Shown here: one piece after another, positions 15,141 through 25,999 of the stretch | Layout of the letters: every line of letters begins with the position of its first letter | How positions within the stretch are numbered: the first letter of the stretch is position 1 | NCBI GenBank assembly: GCA_050013255.1 | Contig: JBEKFP010000002.1 | Coordinates: 544,001 to 608,000, forward strand | Source: Candidatus Bathyarchaeia archaeon | Lineage (GTDB): Archaea; Thermoproteota; Bathyarchaeia; 40CM-2-53-6 | Direction: 5' to 3' | DNA: 64,000 bases | Notes under the pieces: model-generated | Told to the model about the DNA's origin: nothing | Seen by the model: only the letters and a program-made list of their open reading frames with translations | The model's database searches: none | Program-made: the position numbers and the translations under genes

Positions 15141-15176
15141 AGGTCACCGATTTTGTTACTGCAGGTAAAAAATCCC

Positions 15177-15188
15177 CTATATAAAATT
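15177..15188 (-). promoter_or_regulatory. TATA box of the thermosome gene
   Basis: AATTTTATATAG about 37 nt upstream of the start. Confidence 0.65.
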
Positions 15189-15270
15189 GCTGGGCCGGTC
15201 CTGTTACTTCTTCGGTTGACCATTTTAGGTCGGTTTAGGGGTTTTGGCTGTTACCTTTCGGTTGATTGGG

Positions 15271-15978
15271 CTAGCTTACCTGTGACATGGATTCGTTGAT
15301 GTGCCCGTCAGGTAGAACAAATACAAGGAATGAGTGAGTGACCACATATTCATCAACGCCGGTTCCGCGAACAAGATATCCACCATCCTGTAGTGCAGGC
15401 TCAACACGGACCTCCCAATTCCGTAGCCTTAATCCCCGCCTATCCGTAATCCAATCTATGGCCCTTTTAACTGCCAGTTCGCGGTCGATCTCCTTCGTGG
15501 CGAACGAACTAGGTGGTGGTGGCAGATATGGGTAGTACGATCCTCGTGGCTGCCGATTCTTCACTTGTGACTGAACGAGGTTTACTGTACCGCTTGAGGC
15601 GGGAACAAAAGTATCCAGCTTGCTTTTCAACCCTGCTGCTACATCTCTGAACCATAAAACGAGACCCAAAGTAGTTAGAAATTGGGCGGTGGATAAGGCA
15701 GGGTTATTTGTTTGAAACTGAGATGCGACAGAAATAGCAGAGGCACATGACAAAGCCACAAGACCCGTTCTGATTAAGAATTCCTCTGAATTCCACGCGA
15801 TGCTTACTTTGCTTCGATGTGATCTAACAAACAAGTACGCCACAGATAATCCTCCTATAACGAGCCACACCAGCAAATCAATGAGGTATAGCGAAGTGAA
15901 AAAATCGAGAAAGCCCAAGGTCAATCCCAAAATTGTTGAGCTACCAAACCTCCCGCGATCGCGCCTAGCGCAGCCCAA
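15271..15978 (-). CDS. Cargo: membrane protein with soluble C-terminal domain
   Basis: ~4 TM, Pro-rich linker, small alpha/beta domain; start uncertain. Confidence 0.6.
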   Translation of the reverse strand: MGCARRDRGRFGSSTILGLTLGFLDFFTSLYLIDLLVWLVIGGLSVAYLFVRSHRSKVSIAWNSEEFLIRTGLVALSCASAISVASQFQTNNPALSTAQFLTTLGLVLWFRDVAAGLKSKLDTFVPASSGTVNLVQSQVKNRQPRGSYYPYLPPPPSSFATKEIDRELAVKRAIDWITDRRGLRLRNWEVRVEPALQDGGYLVRGTGVDEYVVTHSFLVFVLPDGHINESMSQVS

Positions 15979-16118
15979 ACAACATTTTGACCAAGAAACA
16001 CGTAGATCATTACGCCAGCAACTATTGCTCCTATTATGAAATGATTTCTTTGGCGTTCCGCTCTGTTTGACATTCGTTTCTCCTTTCTGATATATTCACC
16101 TCTCTCCATCTTTAACAC
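15921..16118 (-). CDS. Cargo: small 2-TM Gly-zipper-like protein
   Basis: IIGAIVAG...AALGAIAGGLVA, directly downstream of the transposase. Confidence 0.5.
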   Translation of the reverse strand: MLKMERGEYIRKEKRMSNRAERQRNHFIIGAIVAGVMIYVFLGQNVVWAALGAIAGGLVAQQFWD

Positions 16119-16129
16119 TATGCGAAAAA

Positions 16130-17260
16130 TCAGGTTGATTCTTGGCTAGCGTTTTGGATTAGGGTTAGCCACTTATCTTTTCCTTTGACTTTGATGCCCG
16201 CTAATTCGGCTGGGGTTTTTCCGTTTATTCCCATGTGTGGGCGAATGTAGTTGTGGAAAATTTGATAGCCTGTTAAGATTGGCGTGTCCTCTTTCTTGAG
16301 TGAGCGCATGACCTTCTCTCTGTCCCTGATTTCTCCGTTCATGCGTTCCATCTTGTTATTGTTCAAGTCACCTGACATACGAACATGTCGAATGTGTTGA
16401 ATCATCAGTGCCTTATTTTCACGCCAAAACGCTTTCTCGTAAGCCGAACTGAAGTTGAACGCTCCGTCTGTGATGAGTGTACTTGGTGCTTTCTCTGCGA
16501 ACTTCTTTCCTTCGCGGAATAGTGGTGTTATGTCGGCTGTGTATTTCGAGTCTGTGACTTGTTGAGCTATCCAGAACCGTGTCTCATCATCCATGAGAGC
16601 ATAGAGGTACTTCATATCTCCACGCACTTTCAGGAATAGTTCATCAGCTCTCCACGTGTCCGAGACTTGCGGCGTTATCTTGTCTAGGTACTTCTCCATC
16701 AATGCGGTGTACTTCTTTATCCACATGAACACGGTTTTGTGGCTAACTTGAACGCCAAGCAACCGAAGCGATCTTGCCGTGTTCCGTAGGCTCTCACCGG
16801 AAAAGTATAGTTGCATGGCGGTTGTGACACCATGCGGGTTATGCTTCATCTTTTCGAAACCGAGATTCACGCTGAAGGTTCTCTCACAATCGGCGCATAA
16901 GAAGCGTTGTAGGTTGCCACACTTGTTCCAGCGAACACCATATTTCTTCAAGTTACGTGAATGGCAGAAAACACATGAGTTGATTTCAACGGGTTGAATT
17001 ACGAATTCTCTGACTTTCTCACGTAGCTTTAGACTAAACTCAACGGCCCAGATATGCTTACATTTGACTTCGCGATGCGTGAAGTCGGGGCAGTTGCATA
17101 TCCAGCCAATAGCGAACGATTCTGTTCGAGCTACGTCGTACGTTATCTCGCGTGATTGGGAAGCTACCTTGTAGAACTTTTCGCTTAATCGTTGAACTTG
17201 GTTAGGCTTCTGCGCTATTGCTTGTCCTCTTTCCTGACGAGAGAGCATAGCTGTTTGCAT
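16130..17260 (-). CDS. IS6-family DDE transposase with N-terminal SWIM finger and Zn ribbon
   Basis: SWIM CNCPDF..CKH; CVFC..CADC; WRADE / ITDG / NNKMER triad; HNYIRPH. Confidence 0.88.
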   Translation of the reverse strand: MQTAMLSRQERGQAIAQKPNQVQRLSEKFYKVASQSREITYDVARTESFAIGWICNCPDFTHREVKCKHIWAVEFSLKLREKVREFVIQPVEINSCVFCHSRNLKKYGVRWNKCGNLQRFLCADCERTFSVNLGFEKMKHNPHGVTTAMQLYFSGESLRNTARSLRLLGVQVSHKTVFMWIKKYTALMEKYLDKITPQVSDTWRADELFLKVRGDMKYLYALMDDETRFWIAQQVTDSKYTADITPLFREGKKFAEKAPSTLITDGAFNFSSAYEKAFWRENKALMIQHIRHVRMSGDLNNNKMERMNGEIRDREKVMRSLKKEDTPILTGYQIFHNYIRPHMGINGKTPAELAGIKVKGKDKWLTLIQNASQEST

Positions 17261-17271
17261 GTGTTTCGCCT

Positions 17272-17327
17272 ATGCTTTGATATTACAGCATAAGGCGTAT
17301 ATAACGATTACTGTGATATTACAGCAT
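17272..17327. promoter_or_regulatory. Divergent promoter with two near-palindromic operator-like sites
   Basis: TGATATTACAGCAT at 17278-17291 and 17314-17327 flanking GTATATAAC. Confidence 0.6.
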
Positions 17328-17542
17328 TGGGAAAGAACGTGGTCAGAAAGCAAATTCTGGGCGATTGGGAGCGTAAGATACTCGTATCCTATCTCAAAGA
17401 TGAACGACTGAAAGGCTACACCGCTCTACTGTTTCACATTCGCAAGATGGGGTTAAAAGCAATCATAGACGGGTGCGAGAACGACCTCAAGATTCTGCGG
17501 CAACTAGCGACCAAGGAGGAAAAGAAAACTGAGCGCACTTAG
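17327..17542 (+). CDS. Small basic protein divergent from the transposase (putative regulator)
   Basis: 71-aa Lys/Arg-rich ORF starting inside the second operator-like site. Confidence 0.65.
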   Translation: MGKNVVRKQILGDWERKILVSYLKDERLKGYTALLFHIRKMGLKAIIDGCENDLKILRQLATKEEKKTERT

Positions 17543-18005
17543 ACATTTTAGGAGCGTTTTCCTCGCTTTTCCTTTTTCAATCCTTGTGATGCTTATCTTT
17601 GCCGCGATTTCAAGCGATGTTTGGATTTTCGTTGTCTCTGCTCTCTTAGCTTGGGTTATAGCAGATACGATATTCAATCTGTTAATTCGTGGTGGCGAGG
17701 GAATATTTCAAACGCGGCTCGCTGGCACGACTCACACACAAGCCGTTGGATACGGCTATCTTGTGTTCCTATTCGTTGTAGGTTTTGCCACGCTGATGGC
17801 TACCAAGTTCACTGAGTGGCTCATGCTGATTATCCCATTCTGGCTTAACTCATATGATGGAATGACTGGAGCCATAATCAATATTGCGAACATCCGGTAT
17901 GTCTCAGCGAGTTGGTTCTTCAGTACGCTGATAATCAGTTCCGCTGCCGGAATCGCTGCTTTGATTGATCTTTTCGTGAGATTCTATCAGCGGCATGAGA
18001 GATAG
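17529..18005 (+). CDS. Cargo: membrane protein, paralog A1
   Basis: WIFVVSALLAWVIADTIFNLL aligns with the 18284 ORF; frame open back to CTG 17529 after AGGAGG (ORF track start 17586). Confidence 0.65.
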   Translation: MSALRHFRSVFLAFPFSILVMLIFAAISSDVWIFVVSALLAWVIADTIFNLLIRGGEGIFQTRLAGTTHTQAVGYGYLVFLFVVGFATLMATKFTEWLMLIIPFWLNSYDGMTGAIINIANIRYVSASWFFSTLIISSAAGIAALIDLFVRFYQRHER

Positions 18006-18189
18006 CTACGAAAACGCCCACGAGAGTTCCGAGAACTATCATTGGATTGACTCGAAAGTAGGCTGCGCACAACAGGAACACAATATCGCATAGAACGGTC
18101 ATAACAAGCATTTTTACAGGTATGGGCATCAGCAGGAACGGCTCACTCGCCCCACCAAGGAAACGCCTTACTACATCGCTAAATCTCAC
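17935..18189 (-). CDS. Cargo: small 2-TM protein B1, convergent with and overlapping A1
   Basis: Hydrophobic hairpin with basic tail; same arrangement recurs at 18582. Confidence 0.5.
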   Translation of the reverse strand: MRFSDVVRRFLGGASEPFLLMPIPVKMLVMTVLCDIVFLLCAAYFRVNPMIVLGTLVGVFVAISHAADRISRKDQSKQRFRQRN

Positions 18190-18220
18190 TTGACTTAACC
18201 AAAGGAAAAATGCTTGTTAT

Positions 18221-18269
18221 CCGACAAAAAGTAACACCAAATACCATCAGATAACAAGGTAACAGACCC
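18221..18269 (-). repeat. Internal degenerate IS6-type end
   Basis: rc GGGTCTGTTACC ending at 18269 plus a second GTAACA at 18231-18236. Confidence 0.5.
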
Positions 18270-18283
18270 CAGCTGAACCGTGA

Positions 18284-18646
18284 ATGTCACGAGACTTCTG
18301 GAAAAATGCGCTGATCGCTTTACCTATAGCAATAGGCATGTTGACTGCCCTAGAATGGTATAATCAGCAGTATTGGTTGTTTGCCGTTACGGGATTAGTC
18401 GGTTGGTGCGTCGCTGACTTTTTGTTTCGCATTCTTCAAAAACAAGGAGCAGTAAATGTCATCGACTTTGTTGGCTTCATAATCGTTGTCATCATGGCTA
18501 CCGCCGCAGGTGCTTACGTAAGCAACGCATTAGTGAATTCGCAGAAGACAAGCGAAAACCAGCTGATTCCAGCATTAATGGTCAACTTTGTTGCTGCCTC
18601 TCTCGCTTATGTTGAATCGAGTTATGAAATACAAGAGCACCTATAG
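18284..18646 (+). CDS. Cargo: membrane protein, paralog A2
   Basis: WLFAVTGLVGWCVADFLFRIL; ~4 TM. Confidence 0.65.
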   Translation: MSRDFWKNALIALPIAIGMLTALEWYNQQYWLFAVTGLVGWCVADFLFRILQKQGAVNVIDFVGFIIVVIMATAAGAYVSNALVNSQKTSENQLIPALMVNFVAASLAYVESSYEIQEHL

Positions 18647-18770
18647 TTGCAACAACATACGACACAACGCAAGCTATCAGAGTGATATGGGCATCAAGAT
18701 GTAAAACTAGGGCAATCCCAAGGAATAACGCTTCTAAAAGGGCAATCGCGATAGCTAACTGAACATCCAA
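18582..18770 (-). CDS. Cargo: small 2-TM protein B2, convergent with and overlapping A2
   Basis: Hydrophobic hairpin with charged tail. Confidence 0.5.
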   Translation of the reverse strand: MDVQLAIAIALLEALFLGIALVLHLDAHITLIACVVSYVVATIGALVFHNSIQHKRERQQQS

Positions 18771-18926
18771 CCGTAGACGTCTGAAGATATTTATTGGTCC
18801 TATCAGTGATGGTCAGTTGTCTCCGAGATAGTGCCCTGTCAACCGAAAGGTAACAACGGACAAAATAGCCACAAAAATGCGCCCGTTAGAGCCTTTCAAC
18901 CGCAGAGGTAACACCACCGCTGGGCC

Positions 18927-19018
18927 GGCTCTTTTGCGTTCGTGGGACACGGCAAAAACGCCCTCGAAAGGGTTTGCAAAGCGGGACACAGACTTTTACC
19001 TGTCAAACTGCGGGACAT
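18927..19018 (+). repeat. Second-type IS6-like end with GGGACA sub-repeats
   Basis: GGCTCTTTTGCGTTCGTGGGACAC starts right after the TSD; GGGACA occurs three times; homologous to 23068-23118. Confidence 0.55.
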
Positions 19019-19027
19019 GGCTAGGTA

Positions 19028-19915
19028 ATGCGCTTGGTAGGTTTGCGGCAGCGCATACGCGATTTCTGGATTACGTTAAGAGTGCATCGTATTGCGTGGG
19101 CTCTCACCCTTGGAAGCTTGTGGATTCTGTACTCGTGGATTATAGCCGAATGGTTTTACAGGCATGGAATAACGCGACGGTCAATCAGGTATTTCGTTCA
19201 TCGCCTTGCCAATGTTCTGCTCTGGCTAATTGGAGGACTAGTAGTGCTTCTCGTACTCGCCTATGGTCCGTCCTATGTCTACGAATTGGTACGATCATGG
19301 GTTGCTGAAAACTTGGTTAATCCAGCGCAATTCTTCACCGAGGCGCTCGTGCTGCTAATAGTTGAGCTACCAATACTGTACTTGGTCAGTCGCGTTGCAG
19401 GTGAATCCAAGTCACCCGTAGCAAGACTTCAGGTCAACGCCTCAAGACCAACTGAGAATAAAGATGGAAGTCTAATTCTCGGAGTAAATGTCACAAATGT
19501 CGGCGAAGTTGCAGCGGTTAGTTGTGAAGCGAGGCTCACCTTTGAACTCAAGTCAGGTGATTTAGTTGATTCAACCACAGACACAGTTTTCACTAGGGAC
19601 ACATTCAAACCGCCTTTGAGGACCAAGGTTCCTTGGAATAATGCAACACTATACACGCACTTAAGAGTCGGTGATTTGGGAGAGATTCCAGTCGTTAAAG
19701 TGTCGTTAGATTCAGAACATTTTGAAATACCGAGCGACCAAGGATGGACTCCTATCAGTCTTTCAGTGAGACCTGACCATTATTTCGGCTCAGTTAATGT
19801 TGTTCCGTTTAATGGAAGGCCCACTCTAACTCGTTTTGTCTTGAGACAGGTGGAGATTCCAGATCGCTATGGTAGGCCCACAGGGTTGTTGCGGTGGGGG
19901 GTACAGTTACTATGA
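19028..19915 (+). CDS. Membrane protein (3 TM) with beta-rich soluble domain
   Basis: 295-aa ORF; TM segments then Ig-like VNVTNVG motif. Confidence 0.7.
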   Translation: MRLVGLRQRIRDFWITLRVHRIAWALTLGSLWILYSWIIAEWFYRHGITRRSIRYFVHRLANVLLWLIGGLVVLLVLAYGPSYVYELVRSWVAENLVNPAQFFTEALVLLIVELPILYLVSRVAGESKSPVARLQVNASRPTENKDGSLILGVNVTNVGEVAAVSCEARLTFELKSGDLVDSTTDTVFTRDTFKPPLRTKVPWNNATLYTHLRVGDLGEIPVVKVSLDSEHFEIPSDQGWTPISLSVRPDHYFGSVNVVPFNGRPTLTRFVLRQVEIPDRYGRPTGLLRWGVQLL

Positions 19916-19916
19916 A

Positions 19917-20054
19917 TCATAGTTGCTTAGTCTTGAAGTATTCTCCTAGTACGGCTCTTACTGCTTCTGGGATGGATTCTAGTTTTCGTGCTTTGCGTTC
20001 TTGGTCTAGTGCCTTTACCATTTCATCGGACATGGCTACCATTATCTTGTTCAT
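19917..20054 (-). CDS. Ribbon-helix-helix (CopG-like) protein
   Basis: MNKIMVAMSDEMVKALDQERKARKLESIPEAVRAVLGEYF. Confidence 0.75.
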   Translation of the reverse strand: MNKIMVAMSDEMVKALDQERKARKLESIPEAVRAVLGEYFKTKQL

Positions 20055-20296
20055 TGCCAAGTTTGACACGCTACCATTGTAGCGCAGCTCAGAATGGGGG
20101 AATCTGCCAAAATCTAGCGATCTAAACGCTTGGCAGCTAAAAAAGGCCAAATAGACAGGATTCGGCATTCTGGTTCACGCTGGAATCAAAAAGCCTCTCT
20201 TATCCTCCTAAATTGAACTTCCTTACGTAAATACGGCTTAACTTAGCACTCCAGGCAGGATTCTGCTAGCAACGGTGTGCTCTAGAGGACATATTC

Positions 20297-21634
20297 TTGA
20301 AAGCCGTCTTATCGATAGCGTTACTGGTTCTCATCTCCGCGATCTTTCTGCCCGCTGCGATGGGTTACATTTCTCCCACAACTACGAGCAGTCATCTCCA
20401 GGCAACTAATCCGTTAACGGTATGGTTTAATGGCGCTTTTCAATTGACCTTGGCGTATCCACCAGCGTATGAGTTCAATGTAGCGGCTAATACTGCTTCT
20501 GGGCTCTGGATAACGAGTCTACACTGGGACTTTGGAGACGGCGCCACCCGTGATGTTTCCTTCTCAGGTCAAAGCCAAGTTAGCGACATAGAAGACCACC
20601 AGTACTCAAGCCAAGGAAACTTCTGTGTTACCGTTACGGCGTACGACAGCGCGGGGAACGTGGCAAGCGTTAGTCAACCCCTGATGACAAATTATGATTT
20701 CACGTTGACGGCGACTCCGGCTGCGCAGAACGTTACACCAGGAGCATCTGCTACTTACAATGTAATCGTTGGACAATGGCCACTGGCGTGTGGTAGCGGA
20801 GTGTCCGTCAGCCTAGCCATATCCTCCCCGGCTCCACAAGGAGTTACGTGGACACTGAATCCTGCCTCCGGAAAGACACCTTTCACTTCCACCCTTAAGG
20901 TACAGACAGCAACTACGACACCTACCGGAACCTACACGATTAACATCGTTGGAACTAGCTCCAACCTAGCGCACACAACGACAGTAAATCTCGTCGTGGG
21001 TCAACCATACTTTGCGCTCTCCGCCGCTCCAAGTTCGTTGTTCGTGCCCCCCCAACCAAACGCGCAACCGGGGATAATGAATACGACCACGGTGACGGTT
21101 CAGTCCTTCAATGGGTTCAACAGCCCGGTGACCCTTACCGATTCGGGACTACCAAATGGAATGACGGCATACTTCCTTCCACCAACAATTACGCCTCCCC
21201 CGAACGGACAAGTTGCGACTCTGCTTACATTCACGACCCCATGCAGTGTATCCCCTGGATCGTACGTAATAGTCGTTCAAGGAACTGGCGGCGGAGTAAC
21301 GAGGCAGGTGAATGTCAACCTTACAGTTGCTTCCTGTGCTGCGGCGCAAGGCTCCGGAGGTTTCGGAATTTGGCCATGGATCATAGGAGGGGTACTTGGA
21401 TTGCTCATTCTTCTCCCAATCCTTCTCATCCTTCTCTACATGCGGAGACCAGTTCTCGCTCCTGCAGTCGTTCCAGCTCCCGCGGTGGTTCCAGCAGTCG
21501 TTCTTTTCCCCGTCCCTGTCACACCTATTCCGCCTCCGCCGGCAATTGCAACAATGCCTTGCCCTGTTTGTGGCAACCCTATGAGACCTGTAGAGGTGAG
21601 ATGGTATTGCGACCTCTGCCAGAGATACGTGTGA
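20297..21634 (+). CDS. Cell-surface PKD/Ig-repeat protein with TM, Pro-rich linker and C-terminal Zn ribbon
   Basis: Signal peptide; WDFGDG; two TP.G.Y.I...GT repeats; CPVC..CDLC. Confidence 0.85.
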   Translation: MKAVLSIALLVLISAIFLPAAMGYISPTTTSSHLQATNPLTVWFNGAFQLTLAYPPAYEFNVAANTASGLWITSLHWDFGDGATRDVSFSGQSQVSDIEDHQYSSQGNFCVTVTAYDSAGNVASVSQPLMTNYDFTLTATPAAQNVTPGASATYNVIVGQWPLACGSGVSVSLAISSPAPQGVTWTLNPASGKTPFTSTLKVQTATTTPTGTYTINIVGTSSNLAHTTTVNLVVGQPYFALSAAPSSLFVPPQPNAQPGIMNTTTVTVQSFNGFNSPVTLTDSGLPNGMTAYFLPPTITPPPNGQVATLLTFTTPCSVSPGSYVIVVQGTGGGVTRQVNVNLTVASCAAAQGSGGFGIWPWIIGGVLGLLILLPILLILLYMRRPVLAPAVVPAPAVVPAVVLFPVPVTPIPPPPAIATMPCPVCGNPMRPVEVRWYCDLCQRYV

Positions 21635-21735
21635 ATCCATCCCAAATAGTCCCCCTCGCCATCCACTTCTTGGGCGTTTTGGACGCCCGCCTTTTCTAAT
21701 GAAGTAGCAGTGGAAAAGTTAGAGACAGTTCTATC

Positions 21736-21805
21736 TTTGCTGTTACCTCTTCGGTTGACCAGGTTCGTTCAGTTTGGGGGTTTTGGCTGTTACTTTTTGG
21801 TTGGT
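21736..21805 (+). repeat. Eroded copy of the 15197 transposon end
   Basis: CTGTTACCTCTTCGGTTGACC...GGGGTTTTGGCTGTTAC with the same 47-bp spacing as 15201/15248; terminal GG lost. Confidence 0.75.
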
Positions 21806-22074
21806 GGAAGTAACTTGCAATCAGGATACTCCGAAGTTAGAGGGAAGAACTTAGTCTACAAGCTTAGATGCTTTCTTAAAAAGCCAAAGCGCCCCTAAAG
21901 CTTGAAGCGGCAGCGACACCCATACCATTAACATTACGAGACTCATTTGTAGGTTCTCTGTGTCTACGTAGGATGATGTTGAGATAAGATCAACATCCAG
22001 TTCTCTTGGAAGCATTGTTTACTTGTGAGCCAGCTATTGTCACAAGTAGTCACATGTAGCAACAGCTGTTAGAG

Positions 22075-22362
22075 TTACTTTTGACTTGCGTTCTGGATAA
22101 GAGTTAGCCATTTATCTTTTCCCTTAACTTTGATTCCAGCAACTTCGGCTGGTGTTTGTCCATCTAGGCCCATGTGTGGTCGTATGTAGTTGTGGAAGAT
22201 TTGGCAACCCGTTAGGATTGGGCTGTCTCCTTTCTTCAAGGAACGCATGACCTTTTCTCTGTCGCGGATTTCTCCGTTCATTTGTTCCGTCTTATTATTG
22301 TGAACGCTTCCATCAATGCGAATGTCTTGAACATGCTCAAGTGCGAGGGCTTTCTTTTCCCT
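22075..22362 (-). pseudogene. IS6 transposase 3' remnant
   Basis: KALALEHVQDIRIDGSVHNNKTEQMNGEIRDREKVMRSLKK...WLTLIQNASQK, closely similar to the C-terminus of the 16130 ORF. Confidence 0.88.
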
Positions 22363-22428
22363 CCCTTCTTTTCCTTCTGCCCTTTGCTGTTACATGTCGG
22401 GACTTCGGCTCACACTATAGATTGGAGG

Positions 22429-22896
22429 CTACATTTTCGAGGTGGTTGGTGGCTTCCAAGTCAAAGCGAGTATTCCACCGAGAACTCCGAGGACCAAGCC
22501 TACTCCGAAGCCTGCCATAGCACTGCCAAATATGCTCAGAACCGAGAAGATTAGGATGAGCAGCCCCCATTTTGAGTGGTCAATTGGGTTGTTGTAGAGC
22601 ATTAGGCTGCTGACCATGACCACAATTCCGAACACTATGCCCGCAAGGCCGAATATTCCACCGAACCCGTATCCTCCCATCATTCCGAACCCGGGACCAT
22701 ACGAGTATCGGCCCATCATCCCCCATCCATATCCACCGTATCCTCCATACCCTGAATAGCCATTCATCATCCCGCCAAACCCGAACGGCCCCACCATTGA
22801 CATCATTCCTCCCCCCAACAGAATGAAGATGCCCCCAATCAGTGAGAGCACGAAAGCAATCGTAGGTTTCTCTTCTGCTGACATGTTTGGTTTCAC
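22429..22896 (-). CDS. 4-TM protein with Gly/Met/Tyr-rich loop
   Basis: KPTIAFVLSLIGG, GMMG repeats, GGILALTWKP. Confidence 0.75.
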   Translation of the reverse strand: MKPNMSAEEKPTIAFVLSLIGGIFILLGGGMMSMVGPFGFGGMMNGYSGYGGYGGYGWGMMGRYSYGPGFGMMGGYGFGGIFGLAGIVFGIVVMVSSLMLYNNPIDHSKWGLLILIFSVLSIFGSAMAGFGVGLVLGVLGGILALTWKPPTTSKM

Positions 22897-23067
22897 TGGC
22901 TGCTAAAGCCTAGCTCAGGTTTCCATCTGACCCTGAGGGTTTATAGTTTTCGTGTGTGAATGGATGAAAAGTCTCTAGTCTGGTTGCGTGTAGGTTCTCC
23001 GCGGTTTCAGATACAGTTCATCGGCTCGCGAAGTATCGCTTACTTGAGGCTGAATCTGCTCTGAAGA

Positions 23068-23118
23068 GATTCTGTTACATCCTAGGGACACGGGAAAAGG
23101 TGTTACAAAACGGGACAT
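23068..23118 (+). repeat. IS6-like end, GGGACA type
   Basis: GATTCTGTTACATCCTAGGGACAC plus GTGTTACAAAACGGGACAT; aligns with the 18927 end. Confidence 0.55.
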
Positions 23119-23180
23119 TTTCAATTAGCCGGATGGCTTAAAGATGGTTTTCTGACACCCGTGATCCAAAAAACAATGTA

Positions 23181-23813
23181 TTATCTTCCTCTCCTAATTG
23201 ATGCGGTTTTTGGTGGCCTCGCAATCGTATGGATGTTAATGGAAAGTGGCAGCTTTGCGATGGTTAAGCCCACGGGGCAAGTCTGGGGGTCTACTGGAAT
23301 AGTGGTGTTAATTGTTCGGCTTACCGTCTCACCGAGTTCTAAAACGAATACGGAAATTGTGATACTAGCGGCTGTGATTCTAACGTTTGTGGATAAGGTA
23401 CCTCCATGTAATGCGATGGCGAACGCGCGATTAGGTGCTGTAAACATTTGGGTGTCATACGGATGAGTTCTGTTGGCATAAATGGTTGTCCCGTTAGAGA
23501 AGGTTAGTGCGTCGTACGTGATAGATGAATTAACCATGTGAACTGATTCATTGAGACGGTTCACGAAATTTGTGAGCAAAACCGGAAAGGGAGGAGAAGT
23601 CGCATTCCTCCAGCAGATGTACGTATCAACTAAACTGAAATCACTGTCGTGGAGTGGTATGTACGTCGAAGTTGCTGTCGTCGGTATGCTTGGTGGCGAC
23701 TCATAGTATGAATAATAAATGTACCAAGAGATGAAAACAACAATGCCCAGTAAGGCTATGGCTTTCCCATATTTGAGATAGCTACGTTTCTTCGTTTTTT
23801 CCGAGGTACTCAC
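23181..23813 (-). CDS. Membrane-anchored exported Thr-rich protein
   Basis: Basic N-terminus, single TM, several N-x-S/T sequons. Confidence 0.65.
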   Translation of the reverse strand: MSTSEKTKKRSYLKYGKAIALLGIVVFISWYIYYSYYESPPSIPTTATSTYIPLHDSDFSLVDTYICWRNATSPPFPVLLTNFVNRLNESVHMVNSSITYDALTFSNGTTIYANRTHPYDTQMFTAPNRAFAIALHGGTLSTNVRITAASITISVFVLELGETVSRTINTTIPVDPQTCPVGLTIAKLPLSINIHTIARPPKTASIRRGR

Positions 23814-24041
23814 CTAGAATTACTACTCTAGCGGTTTCAGGTATCGTTCCTAACATACGTTTCTTACGTTCTTTCTCAAGAGTCTTCCCCCACGTCCTCA
23901 GTTATGGAGAGCATGAAACGCTTCATTGCCAACGGTTGCACCTATTGATTCCTATTGATTGATGGACTCCCTTGTGGAGAATATGCTCACTATGATTACG
24001 TCATCATCTTCACGAGACATATGGGGATTAGGTTATTTTGC

Positions 24042-24254
24042 CTACTTCTTACTTGCGTTCTGTATCAGTGTAAGCCATTTGTTCTCGCACTTGACCTGAA
24101 TTCCTGCCACTTCGGCTGGCGAGCTGCTGTTAAGTTCGTGTTTGGTGTTCAGGGCTGTCAAAAGTCGTTGGGTGGAGCTACTGTAGCTCTTTGAGGCCCT
24201 TGACGAGTTTTTCATAGTCTCTCTCTAATCTGCTGGTCAATCCAGAAGCGGGTT
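24042..24254 (-). pseudogene. Third, internally deleted IS6 transposase remnant
   Basis: Fragments TRFWIDQQIRE (~24221-24253) and PAEVAGIQVKCENKWLTLIQNASKK* (24042-24119). Confidence 0.8.
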
Positions 24255-24265
24255 TTATCGCTTCA

Positions 24266-25999
24266 CTACTGATGGGCAAAGTACAAAGTGGCAAGGTTAG
24301 GGGCGACTTTGTCCACCCTGCCGAAACCAAACCTGACGAATTGGATGACGGAGCCAACGGGTTCGGAGCAGAAGCCGCTCTCAACGAAACCGCGCTTAGT
24401 GGACGCATCAGGCATTACGACGTCAGCTGGAAGGGTTTGCTCAGCGGGAACCCACTGTAAGATCGGAGTGCTCTCGTGACCTTCGACGGTTTCGCCAAGA
24501 AATTCGGCCTTAAGTTCGCCATCCGAGAAATTGAGAGGCTTGACGTTGAACAGCCCCATCAATCGGATCATTTTGCCTGACTCGAGAATTTGCCTGTCGC
24601 TCCCTGCGAGGAAGAGGGAGGCTACGCCGTTCTGTGGCTGCAGTTTCAGGGTACGGGTTCCCATTTCTGGACGTTGCGGGTGAAGCGCGGCATGCACTTC
24701 GAAGACCTTCTCAACGCCACTGACGCTCGCCCTAATGGGGTCCGGTACGAAGTAGTATCGGTGAGATGTTGAGTCGATGATTTTTCGGTTTAGAGCGTTG
24801 ATGTTGTCCCAGCTTATCGTCACGTCCACGGGTTTAGGGCCGACGTCCCATATGAGTTGTCTTATTGTTTCTGGGCTGAAACCCCGCCTTCTTAGTGCCG
24901 CTAATGTTCCGAGCCTTGGATCATCGATACCTTCGTATTCGCCTGATTCAACACCTTTCATAAGTTTGGATTTGCTGAGTTCCATTCCTTCAACCTTGAG
25001 CCGTCCGTAATGAACAGCGTCCGGATACTTCCAGCCCAAGTGTTTGTACATGTAGATCTGGCGGGCCATGTTTGTGAGGTGTTCTTTTCCTCGGATCACG
25101 TGCGTTATGCCCAGGGTGTGGTCGTCAACACCAGATGCCAGGTTGTAAAGCGGCCACACATGGAATCTTGATCCCACGCGGGGGTGGGGGTTCTTGTCTG
25201 TGTCTATGATTCGGAAGGCCGGCCAGTCCCTAATGGCTGGGTTAGGATGCGATAGGTCCGTCTTAACACGGACAACGGCTTCGCCCTCCTTGTACCCACC
25301 ATCGAGCATCTTCCTCCAACGTTTCGTTTGGGTGTCCGCATCCAACTCTCGGTCGGGGCAGGCGGAATTGCTGTTGACGAGTTCTCGAAATCGTTCTGGT
25401 TTGCATTCACAGACGTACGCGGCCCCTTTCGTGATAAGAGTTTGAGCTACCTCATAGTAGAGTGGAATTCGGTCGCTCTGGATGTACTCTTCGTCCCAGT
25501 TGCAGCCTAGCCACCTCAAATCTTCGCGGATGATGTCGTAGTATTTCAGTTGGGCTTTCTTGAGGCGGGGGTCAGTATCTTCGAACCTAACAATGAATTT
25601 CCCTTTATACATCTGAGCGTAGTCGTGGCTTAGGATAACGGCCCGCGCATTGCCTATGTGAAGGACGAAGTCGGGGTTAGGTGCAATACGCGTCACTATG
25701 AGCGAATACTTGTCGGCGTTTGGGAGGGGCGGCAGCTTTCTTTCCTCCTCAGGCCGTTCCTTAACCAGCTCCTCCGGCCACCGTTCCGTTGCTATGGCTG
25801 TAAGTTTCTCCAATGGCATAGAGTTAATTTCTTCAACGACTCCCCGCACTTGTGATGTTAGTTCCCTTGCCTTTGGTTTCAAGTCGGGATTTTCCCCGAG
25901 CAAGTTCCCGAGAACTGCGCCGGGTTCGGCTTTGCCATTATGCTTAATCGCATTGAGTATGGCAGCCTTCCTCATCTTCTCGGTTAGCTCGTTTGACAT
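24266..25999 (-). CDS. gltX: Glutamate--tRNA ligase
   Basis: RIAPNP..LHIGNAR, RFEDTD, LSKS. Confidence 0.96.
   Translation of the reverse strand: MSNELTEKMRKAAILNAIKHNGKAEPGAVLGNLLGENPDLKPKARELTSQVRGVVEEINSMPLEKLTAIATERWPEELVKERPEEERKLPPLPNADKYSLIVTRIAPNPDFVLHIGNARAVILSHDYAQMYKGKFIVRFEDTDPRLKKAQLKYYDIIREDLRWLGCNWDEEYIQSDRIPLYYEVAQTLITKGAAYVCECKPERFRELVNSNSACPDRELDADTQTKRWRKMLDGGYKEGEAVVRVKTDLSHPNPAIRDWPAFRIIDTDKNPHPRVGSRFHVWPLYNLASGVDDHTLGITHVIRGKEHLTNMARQIYMYKHLGWKYPDAVHYGRLKVEGMELSKSKLMKGVESGEYEGIDDPRLGTLAALRRRGFSPETIRQLIWDVGPKPVDVTISWDNINALNRKIIDSTSHRYYFVPDPIRASVSGVEKVFEVHAALHPQRPEMGTRTLKLQPQNGVASLFLAGSDRQILESGKMIRLMGLFNVKPLNFSDGELKAEFLGETVEGHESTPILQWVPAEQTLPADVVMPDASTKRGFVESGFCSEPVGSVIQFVRFGFGRVDKVAPNLATLYFAHQ

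Follow-up and report, generated by a model that had tools for sequence, protein, structure and literature searches.

How does a transposase of a type known from minimal insertion sequences (IS) come to sit in the middle of a 3.7-kb unit that also carries other genes? The question is raised by a stretch of 64,000 nucleotides from a Candidatus Bathyarchaeia archaeon (assembly GCA_050013255.1, contig JBEKFP010000002.1, positions 544,001 to 608,000), hereafter called the window, in which an earlier note had described an intact IS6-family transposon with seven passenger open reading frames (ORFs). IS6-type elements are in textbook terms minimal, with one gene, short ends and no cargo, and they spread through cointegrates. 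Our analysis indicates that positions 15197-18918 of the window are very likely a complete transporter IS (tIS) with passenger genes, which belongs to a large archaeal IS6-related family and is probably still functional.

Boundaries and ends of the element

The element spans 3722 bp and is flanked on both sides by the same octamer, GCTGGGCC. Its tips read GGTCCTGTTACTTCTTCGGTTGA and, on the opposite strand, GGTGGTGTTACCTCTGCGGTTGA. The outer inverted repeats, which begin GGTCCTGTTAC and GGTGGTGTTAC, match at 19 of 23 positions, and further inside lies a perfect 17-nt inverted pair, TGTTACCTTTCGGTTGA, at 52 nt and 63 nt from the respective tips. The outer and inner sites have the halves TGTTAC and CGGTTGA in common, with a spacer of 5 nt in the outer sites and 4 nt in the inner ones. 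Each end carries two sites, which together span 69-80 bp at the left and right ends. In a delimitation scan around the transposase matches, which demanded an exact 8-bp duplication first and scored the inverted repeat second, this repeat pair was the sole solution around the transposase gene. The earlier note had placed the 23-bp repeats, the inner pair and the exact duplication at these same positions and had remarked on the repeated end sites, and all of this is borne out, as is its picture of an intact single-transposase element inserted as one unit with cargo on either side of the transposase. The junctions are 100% identical in 13 contigs from independent metagenome assemblies of several samples, and an assembly artefact is therefore excluded. 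A whole-genome regular-expression detector of bipartite tips gave 191 matches versus 183 on the reversed sequence and was dropped.

A large family in the genus and across archaea

The transposase has 5402 homologues in a large protein collection and is present in 19 of 22 congeners. From about 30 full-length copies in the genus, 24 elements of 2031-4966 bp were delimited. Across the wider archaea, 60 of 93 full-length copies were delimited (2031-6230 bp, median 2987), in a sample that covers Bathyarchaeia, Nitrososphaerota (ammonia-oxidising Thaumarchaeota), Asgard archaea and Methanoperedens. All 84 delimited relatives have GG tips, which the wider scan demanded beforehand, together with exact 8-bp duplications, and none is IS26-sized. 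The recurrence of this architecture in the genus and across archaea excludes chance. The possibility, raised in the earlier note, that other copies of the transposase lack such ends falls away, as they carry bipartite GG ends. The element is real, as that note had claimed, but its "IS6-derived unit transposon" turns out to be an ordinary member of a large archaeal family and not a singular oddity. We found no paper on this family or on promoter-directed IS insertion in archaea in the limited literature searched, and this large archaeal family is apparently undescribed.

In 20 of the 22 genus elements tested, one hexamer occurs at four places, outer and inner at both ends; the hexamers include CGGTTG, CGTTTG, CGGGAC, CGGGAG, CGTCAG and others. 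The offsets of the inner sites in the family are 26-27, 36-37, 45-46 and 57 nt. They step by about 10 bp, which is one helical turn, suggesting that two protomers sit on one face of the DNA. The end hexamer follows the transposase clades only in part.

The same genome holds a second intact member (G000 C1:182371-185509; L020 4372-7510) of 3139 bp with the duplication CGCATCAG. Its transposase is 57% identical to the focal one, and it has bipartite ends with CGGGAG sites as well as palindromic operators, TGCCACAATATTGTGGC. This C1 element abuts the degenerate tip of another element, and in G018 the orthologous site is occupied by a related 4693-bp element whose cargo differs. Besides the two full elements, the genome contains many fragments of the family. 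Family members were also seen at three loci (L118, L171 and L172) in bins labelled as bacterial (Pirellulales, Limnocylindrales and "bacterium").

Mobility of the whole unit

Comparison with congeners revealed that members of the family move as whole units. The flanks of element E20 of G004 (3910 bp, with a glyoxalase gene) are contiguous in the genome studied here, which has a single CAAGAAAG versus TAAGAAAG twice in G004, and element E02 of G011 has an exact empty site in this genome. These exact empty sites show that the whole unit moves, cargo included. In addition, G011 carries two identical 2748-bp copies at separate loci with different duplications. Genes without a role in transposition that lie inside the repeats and move with the element, by which a tIS is recognized in ISfinder usage, are found in E20 and in the 2748-bp copies. 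The mobile entity extends from GG tip to GG tip, inside the 8-bp duplication, and includes the cargo. The simple insertion claimed in the earlier note stands; as end products, simple insertions with duplications fit either a replicative route, by cointegrate (as in IS26) and resolution, or cut-and-paste.

At the focal site, the closest to an empty allele is found in G020, at about 76% identity, which has the IS-free order GluRS, a 95-aa gene and thermosome, with a single GGCCCGCC versus the GGCCCAGC that flanks the element here. The empty allele that the earlier note proposed to seek in relatives is thus represented by this IS-free locus and by exact sites for two sister elements, but not by an exact site for the focal copy.

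Several observations weigh against a copy that is still functional. The data contain no exact empty allele of the focal site and no transposition event of the focal copy. The 13 population contigs with the element are all occupied, without an empty allele or polymorphism. Present once in its genome and unchanged across 13 assemblies, the copy could have become fixed and silent. Furthermore, the outer repeats match at only 19 of 23 positions. An immobile, fixed relic, whose genes or whose site upstream of the thermosome promoter had been co-opted by the host, would account for the single copy, for its identical presence at the same site in contigs from several samples and for the imperfect repeats. 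We regard this as rather improbable, since the frames of the transposase and the regulator are open with every conserved residue present, the duplication is perfect, both pairs of end sites are present and the inner pair is perfect. The true relics next to it show that decay here takes the form of lost transposase genes and degenerate tips. A complete and probably functional element is thus the reading that we retain. The region is also a graveyard of IS with several solo ends, in which a short IS and host genes could by accident have been enclosed between unrelated end fragments. Such a composite is hardly credible for the 3.7-kb unit: it has a single transposase gene, its outer and inner sites match at both ends, its outer tips are bordered by an exact 8-bp duplication, and it has 84 relatives of the same plan as well as sister elements that move whole.

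Transposase and relation to IS6

The transposase comprises a SWIM zinc finger (C55, C57, C67 and H69), a CxxC...CxxC zinc ribbon (C96, C99, C122 and C125), a helix-turn-helix and a DDE domain with the residues D206, D265, E305 and R312. These four residues and both zinc motifs are kept in at least 21 of 22 aligned family transposases. The protein matches Pfam PF13610 (DDE_Tnp_IS240) with 56.1 bits, against a cut-off of 27, and the SWIM family is also matched. The transposase-naming features among the 25 plasmid matches listed are all of the IS6 family. A sequence search of the PDB with the transposase gave nothing meaningful, and Pfam and NCBIfam revealed no accessory ATPase or target-selector family in the ORFs of the element.

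The hallmarks of IS6 are GG tips, a cTGT motif, an 8-bp duplication and a basic residue at position E+7 (PMC7986276). The element has a K/R residue seven positions past the catalytic glutamate (R312), GG tips with the cTGTt motif and an 8-bp target-site duplication. On the other hand, IS6 members are compact, with a length of 0.7-0.9 kb (about 1.8 kb at most), a single gene and no passengers. The 3722-bp element does not share this compactness, and it also has two sites per end instead of a single repeat of 14-20 bp. The NCBIfam IS6 equivalog NF033587 gave 102.1 bits for the focal transposase and 114.8 bits for the second copy in the genome, under the cut-off of 125; strict membership of IS6/IS26 is therefore debatable. 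The nearest annotated proteins among the plasmid matches listed are IS6-like transposases of the ISCpe7 type, with 30% identity over residues 130-364, and classical IS6 transposases are 22-26% identical to the focal one. Accordingly, it is quite possible, though it falls somewhat short of an even chance, that the elements form a separate family-level DDE group which shares only a distant catalytic core and the tip motif with IS6. The sub-threshold NF033587 score and these low identities would agree with such a group, as would the size, the cargo, the bipartite ends, the dedicated regulator and a SWIM domain that is foreign to IS26, and Harmer and Hall have already argued that archaeal and long clostridial zinc-finger "IS6" members need to be split off (PMC6807381). 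The Pfam IS6/IS240 DDE model, well over its threshold, and the presence of all four hallmarks (PMC7986276) argue for keeping the tie to IS6. The IS6-family label of the earlier note is therefore justified by the IS240-type DDE domain, the tips and the duplication, but not by the NCBIfam score, the size, the gene content or the ends, and we speak of an IS6-related family.

Table 1. Features of the element and its borders, in window coordinates.
Feature	Positions	Strand	Basis or remark
Thermosome gene promoter (ATG 15140; TATA box 15178-15186)	15141-15188	-	
Target-site duplication, left copy, GCTGGGCC	15189-15196	.	
Outer terminal repeat, transposase-3' end, GGTCC-TGTTAC-N5-CGGTTGA	15197-15219	+	
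Inner site of transposase-binding type, TGTTAC-N4-CGGTTGA	15249-15265	+	sequence comparison
Passenger gene, 235 aa (217 aa in other calls); N-terminal membrane helices and C-terminal soluble part	15271-15978	-	
Small passenger ORF, 65 aa (50 aa in other calls); one membrane helix	15921-16118	-	
Transposase, 376 aa	16130-17260	-	Pfam PF13610, SWIM
Control region, two operator copies and TATA box	17275-17327	.	repeat search
Core regulator gene F2, 71-aa ORF (likely GTG start at 17339, giving 67 aa)	17327-17542	+	conserved across elements
Passenger gene, 139-aa membrane protein	17586-18005	+	called in other assemblies
Doubtful antisense ORF, 84 aa	17935-18189	-	uncalled in 5/5 assemblies shown
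Passenger gene, 120-aa membrane protein	18284-18646	+	called in other assemblies
Doubtful antisense ORF, 62 aa	18582-18770	-	uncalled in other assemblies
Inner site, regulator-side end	18839-18855	-	
Outer terminal repeat, regulator-side end, GGTGG-TGTTAC-N5-CGGTTGA	18896-18918	-	
Target-site duplication, right copy, GCTGGGCC	18919-18926	.	
Neighbouring decayed element B, GGGAC subgroup	18927-20168	+	multi-site tip; transposase gene missing

Control region and putative core regulator

Clustering of the ORFs of 22 elements revealed that the conserved components are the transposase and a small divergent gene directly upstream of it, here called F2, and nothing else. The conservation of F2 next to the transposase makes it a core gene and not cargo. 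In the gap of about 70 bp between the two genes, a near-palindromic operator, (C)T(T/G)TGATATTACAGCAT, stands twice, at 17275-17291 and 17311-17327; the two copies are 36 bp apart and have a TATA box (17298-17304) between them. The layout of paired operators is also found in nine other elements, in which the palindromes co-vary, for example GCCACAATATTGTGGC, CTACGATATCGTAG and CGACAATATTGTCG.

The alignment of the F2 family has a mean column identity of 67%. In the AlphaFold2 (AF2) model F2 is a three-helix protein, with a predicted local distance difference test (pLDDT) value of 89. The homodimer prediction scored 0.68 versus 0.00 for the best of three controls; the mark used for a homodimer is reached by 20 of 30 known one-chain pairs and by 1 of 23 single-chain proteins. 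At least 96% of the contacts agree between the dimer runs, with a partner pLDDT of at least 80, and the N-terminal residues 4-12 lie in the interface. Dimerisation of F2 is thus supported by the structure prediction. In other subgroups the place of F2 is taken by a CopG/ribbon-helix-helix (RHH), AbrB/MazE-like or DUF5678 protein.

The conserved position and sequence of F2, the paired co-varying operators, the DNA-binding proteins at the same place in other elements and the dimer prediction lead us to propose that F2 is probably a dimeric repressor of the transposase promoter, perhaps ribbon-helix-helix-like. Two points count against this proposal: a Foldseek search of the F2 model against the PDB gave no match at E <= 0.001, and DNA binding by F2 is something that we only infer.

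The swaps of the regulator can be followed element by element, with AbrB-like proteins in E04, E07 and E15, RHH-like proteins in E03, E06 and E19, CopG in E08, E12, E14 and E17, and DUF5678 in E02. Non-homologous DNA-binding folds replace one another across subgroups, with position and orientation retained.

Passenger genes and their turnover

On either side of the transposase, the cargo occupies the interval from the inner site to the core. The seven passenger ORFs counted in the earlier note reduce to about four credible cargo genes, as 17327-17542 is the core regulator and the two antisense ORFs are doubtful. Searches with Pfam and NCBIfam assigned no function to the focal copy's cargo. The 235-aa protein, which matches no Pfam family, has four homologues in all in the large protein collection, and a 59%-identical homologue is encoded downstream of a related transposase in the same relative position (G019:C18). 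The 139-aa protein has homologues of 29-30% identity in three genus genomes, one of them adjoining a transposase gene. Between the 139-aa and the 120-aa proteins there is weak paralogy (BLASTP E = 8e-6 over 29 residues); paralogy of the 84-aa and 62-aa antisense ORFs is unsupported (E = 0.93).

Relatives with 81-92% identical transposases have only the ends, the regulator and the transposase gene in common with one another, and their cargo differs. Similarly, the C1 element and its counterpart at the orthologous G018 site share the core and the ends alone. The cargo of other elements comprises a glyoxalase-family enzyme (E20, 83.9 bits) and coiled-coil, membrane and surface proteins. As judged from these sequence comparisons, the turnover of the cargo is much faster than that of the core.

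The regulator-side cargo at 17586-18770 may be an old tandem duplication of about 700-750 bp, as the repeats D2, D8 and D19 are spaced by 710-752 bp. Each putative duplicate would consist of a small membrane-protein gene and a convergent antisense ORF over its 3' end.

The thermosome locus and its stack of elements

The boundaries of the element agree with the earlier note, which had however missed their setting: the element sits between a promoter and the tip of another element, within a stack. The thermosome promoter is conserved: 11 genus genomes share it, as does the IS-free locus of G020. The left duplication lies 2 bp beyond the thermosome TATA box (3 bp by octamer count) and leaves the promoter intact, and the focal copy occupies the 8 bp between this TATA box and the tip of the older, decayed element B. 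The whole stack covers 9 kb (15141-24265), from the thermosome gene to the GluRS gene at 24266, and the focal copy is its promoter-proximal and sole intact layer. Element B consists of a tip (18927-19016) with three GGGAC sites (at 18932, about 18977 and 19001), a 295-aa cargo ORF (19028-19915) and a CopG/RHH regulator gene on the minus strand (19917-20168) whose product matches RHH_1. This gene is 83-91% identical at the nucleotide level to regulator genes of the genus, at least three of which lie inside delimited elements.

The 5.3 kb from the focal copy to the GluRS gene (18927-24265) are a graveyard of related elements. At 21741-22368 it holds a left-end remnant with both sites and a truncated transposase gene, which is followed at 22388 by an orphan inner site; a degenerate tip (23073, 23101) and a transposase fragment (24042-24215) come next. 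In G020 the GluRS and thermosome genes are about 465 bp apart, versus the 9-kb stack here. Another gene in the stack (20297-21634, plus strand) encodes a protein of 445 aa, secreted or anchored, in which a PKD domain is combined with a C-terminal membrane segment and a CxxC...CxxC motif at the terminus; E21 in G019 has a comparable PKD-like surface protein among its cargo. In addition, a conserved palindrome, GTTAC-N5-GTAAC, stands between the TATA box and the start codon of both the thermosome gene (here GTTAC-N5-GTAA, at 15155-15168) and the Hsp20 gene (11 genus genomes; L044, about 16130-16150), and a heat-shock regulator may use it as its operator. One half of the palindrome, TGTTAC, is similar to the half that is conserved in the transposon end sites; it is about 48 bp away from the outer site, which is the same as the distance from outer to inner sites (47 bp).

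Insertion next to promoters

The setting of the focal copy recurs in the genus. The genus provided 48 flanks, of which 23 adjoin another tip at a distance of 7-9 bp (null 2.6%) and 12 have a strong TATA box 2-5 bp past the duplication (null 0.4%). In the wide sample, the start of the TATA box shows a sharp peak at 3-5 bp, with 28 of 81 non-IS flanks, whereas each other offset holds about one flank. At the thermosome promoter, 10 of 11 genus genomes have a tip equally far from the TATA box, with differing subgroups and differing octamers, and five genomes show the same at the Hsp20 promoter, where the octamer is mostly TTACGTAA. A single ancestral insertion at the thermosome promoter is disfavoured, as different subgroups and octamers occupy the site in different genomes.

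From these patterns we tentatively propose, at a little under even chances, that the family reads the archaeal apparatus of transcription start, either TATA/B recognition element (BRE) DNA bent by TBP and TFB or the proteins themselves, and inserts at an octamer 3-5 bp upstream of the TATA box. The simplest reading of the sequences would be that promoter geometry defines the target and that newcomers therefore enter the same 8 bp again. If this is true, the elements would build promoter-anchored, ordered stacks with exchange of cargo, and it would be the first DNA transposition guided by a preinitiation complex in archaea.

Two observations tell against such targeting. The octamer next to the thermosome promoter is GCTGGGCC here versus TCTGAAAA in the 96%-identical G004, a difference that simple repeated insertion into one octamer does not explain. 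Moreover, the genus genomes are related and not independent, and adjacency to promoters could partly reflect shared ancestry together with the survival of harmless insertions. Stacking might then need no active targeting: a handful of ancient insertions ahead of essential and highly expressed genes would have been inherited vertically, and later ones would have been directed to resident tips, as in IS30, or would have survived at a harmless site. The thermosome and Hsp20 sites are indeed orthologous in these related genomes, the 23 of 48 flanks that abut a tip at about 8 bp could mean that the resident tip is the target signal, and insertions inside genes also occur (E20 and E02). This account is a live alternative, but we find it rather unlikely. 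From genome to genome, one and the same promoter site is occupied by differing subgroups whose end hexamers differ as well; the wide sample, with its Thaumarchaeota, Asgard archaea, Methanoperedens and Bathyarchaeia, likewise shows the TATA peak at 3-5 bp; and the IS-free congener shows that the thermosome site was once empty.

Arrays of a related kind were seen elsewhere in the genus. Different elements that follow one another head to tail are often parted by an octamer that is repeated three times, for example GTGAAGGA in G017 (L046, G017:C5 7086-12674) and TTACGTAA in G016 (L047, G016:C3 5480-11117). Inside such an array in G017:C4 (L044), two identical 2644-bp copies lie in inverted orientation 5 kb apart.

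Proposed mechanism and comparison with known systems

We propose the following mechanism for the element. An F2 dimer would repress the transposase promoter through the paired operators. Two transposase protomers would bind each end on one face of the helix, and the multimeric transpososome would make 8-bp staggered cuts in the target. The target would be the 8 bp that lie 3-5 bp upstream of a TATA box, chosen by promoter architecture. Each newcomer would enter that same octamer and displace its predecessors outward, resulting here in the 9-kb stack with the focal copy as its youngest, promoter-proximal layer.

The element shares with IS26, IS257 and IS6100 the PF13610 DDE domain, the GG tips with cTGT, the 8-bp duplication and the basic residue at E+7. 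Those elements are 0.8-0.9 kb long, with one gene, one 14-20-bp repeat and no cargo, and they form cointegrates, whereas the present element is 3.7 kb (2-6 kb in the family) and, compared with IS26, has two sites per end, a regulator, passengers on both sides and a transposase of 22-26% identity with SWIM and zinc ribbon domains. The ISCpe7 group (clade h/i in PMC7986276; VII/VIII in PMC6807381) is the nearest annotated relative, at 30% identity, and shares the N-terminal zinc-finger extension, but its members are single-gene bacterial elements of 1.2-1.8 kb for which no cargo, bipartite ends or regulator are reported. The only passenger-carrying IS6 member named in the 2021 review is ISDsp3 (PMC7986276). 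Like the present element it has a passenger gene between its ends; however, it is a lone element of 1.46 kb from one Dehalococcoides genome, and its cargo is one hypothetical gene, whereas cargo is the rule in hundreds of copies of the archaeal family and lies on both sides. The ends of Mu, Tn7 and IS21 resemble those described here in having several transposase-binding repeats each, suggesting a transpososome of several protomers. There is no homology to these systems, the element has no match to an ATPase or target selector, and its two sites per end are set at whole helical turns.

The position of the insertions recalls another group of elements. The retrotransposons Ty3 and Ty1 of eukaryotes integrate upstream of a promoter element, at a short distance that is always the same, leave the gene intact and hit the same places recurrently, and their integrases bind RNA polymerase III (Pol III) factors. 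The present element belongs to the DDE DNA transposons and sits at an archaeal TATA/BRE promoter; its likeness to Ty3 and Ty1 is one of insertion position only.

The archaeal branch widens the scope of IS6 chemistry, combining variable genes, a putative repressor of its own, double end sites and insertion beside promoters without breaking them. It represents a ready vehicle for the shuffling of genes in uncultured archaea of soil and sediment, and its stacks are a readable record of successive invasions. If promoter targeting is true, the family would also offer a natural means of inserting DNA beside archaeal genes, at positions that are defined and harmless.

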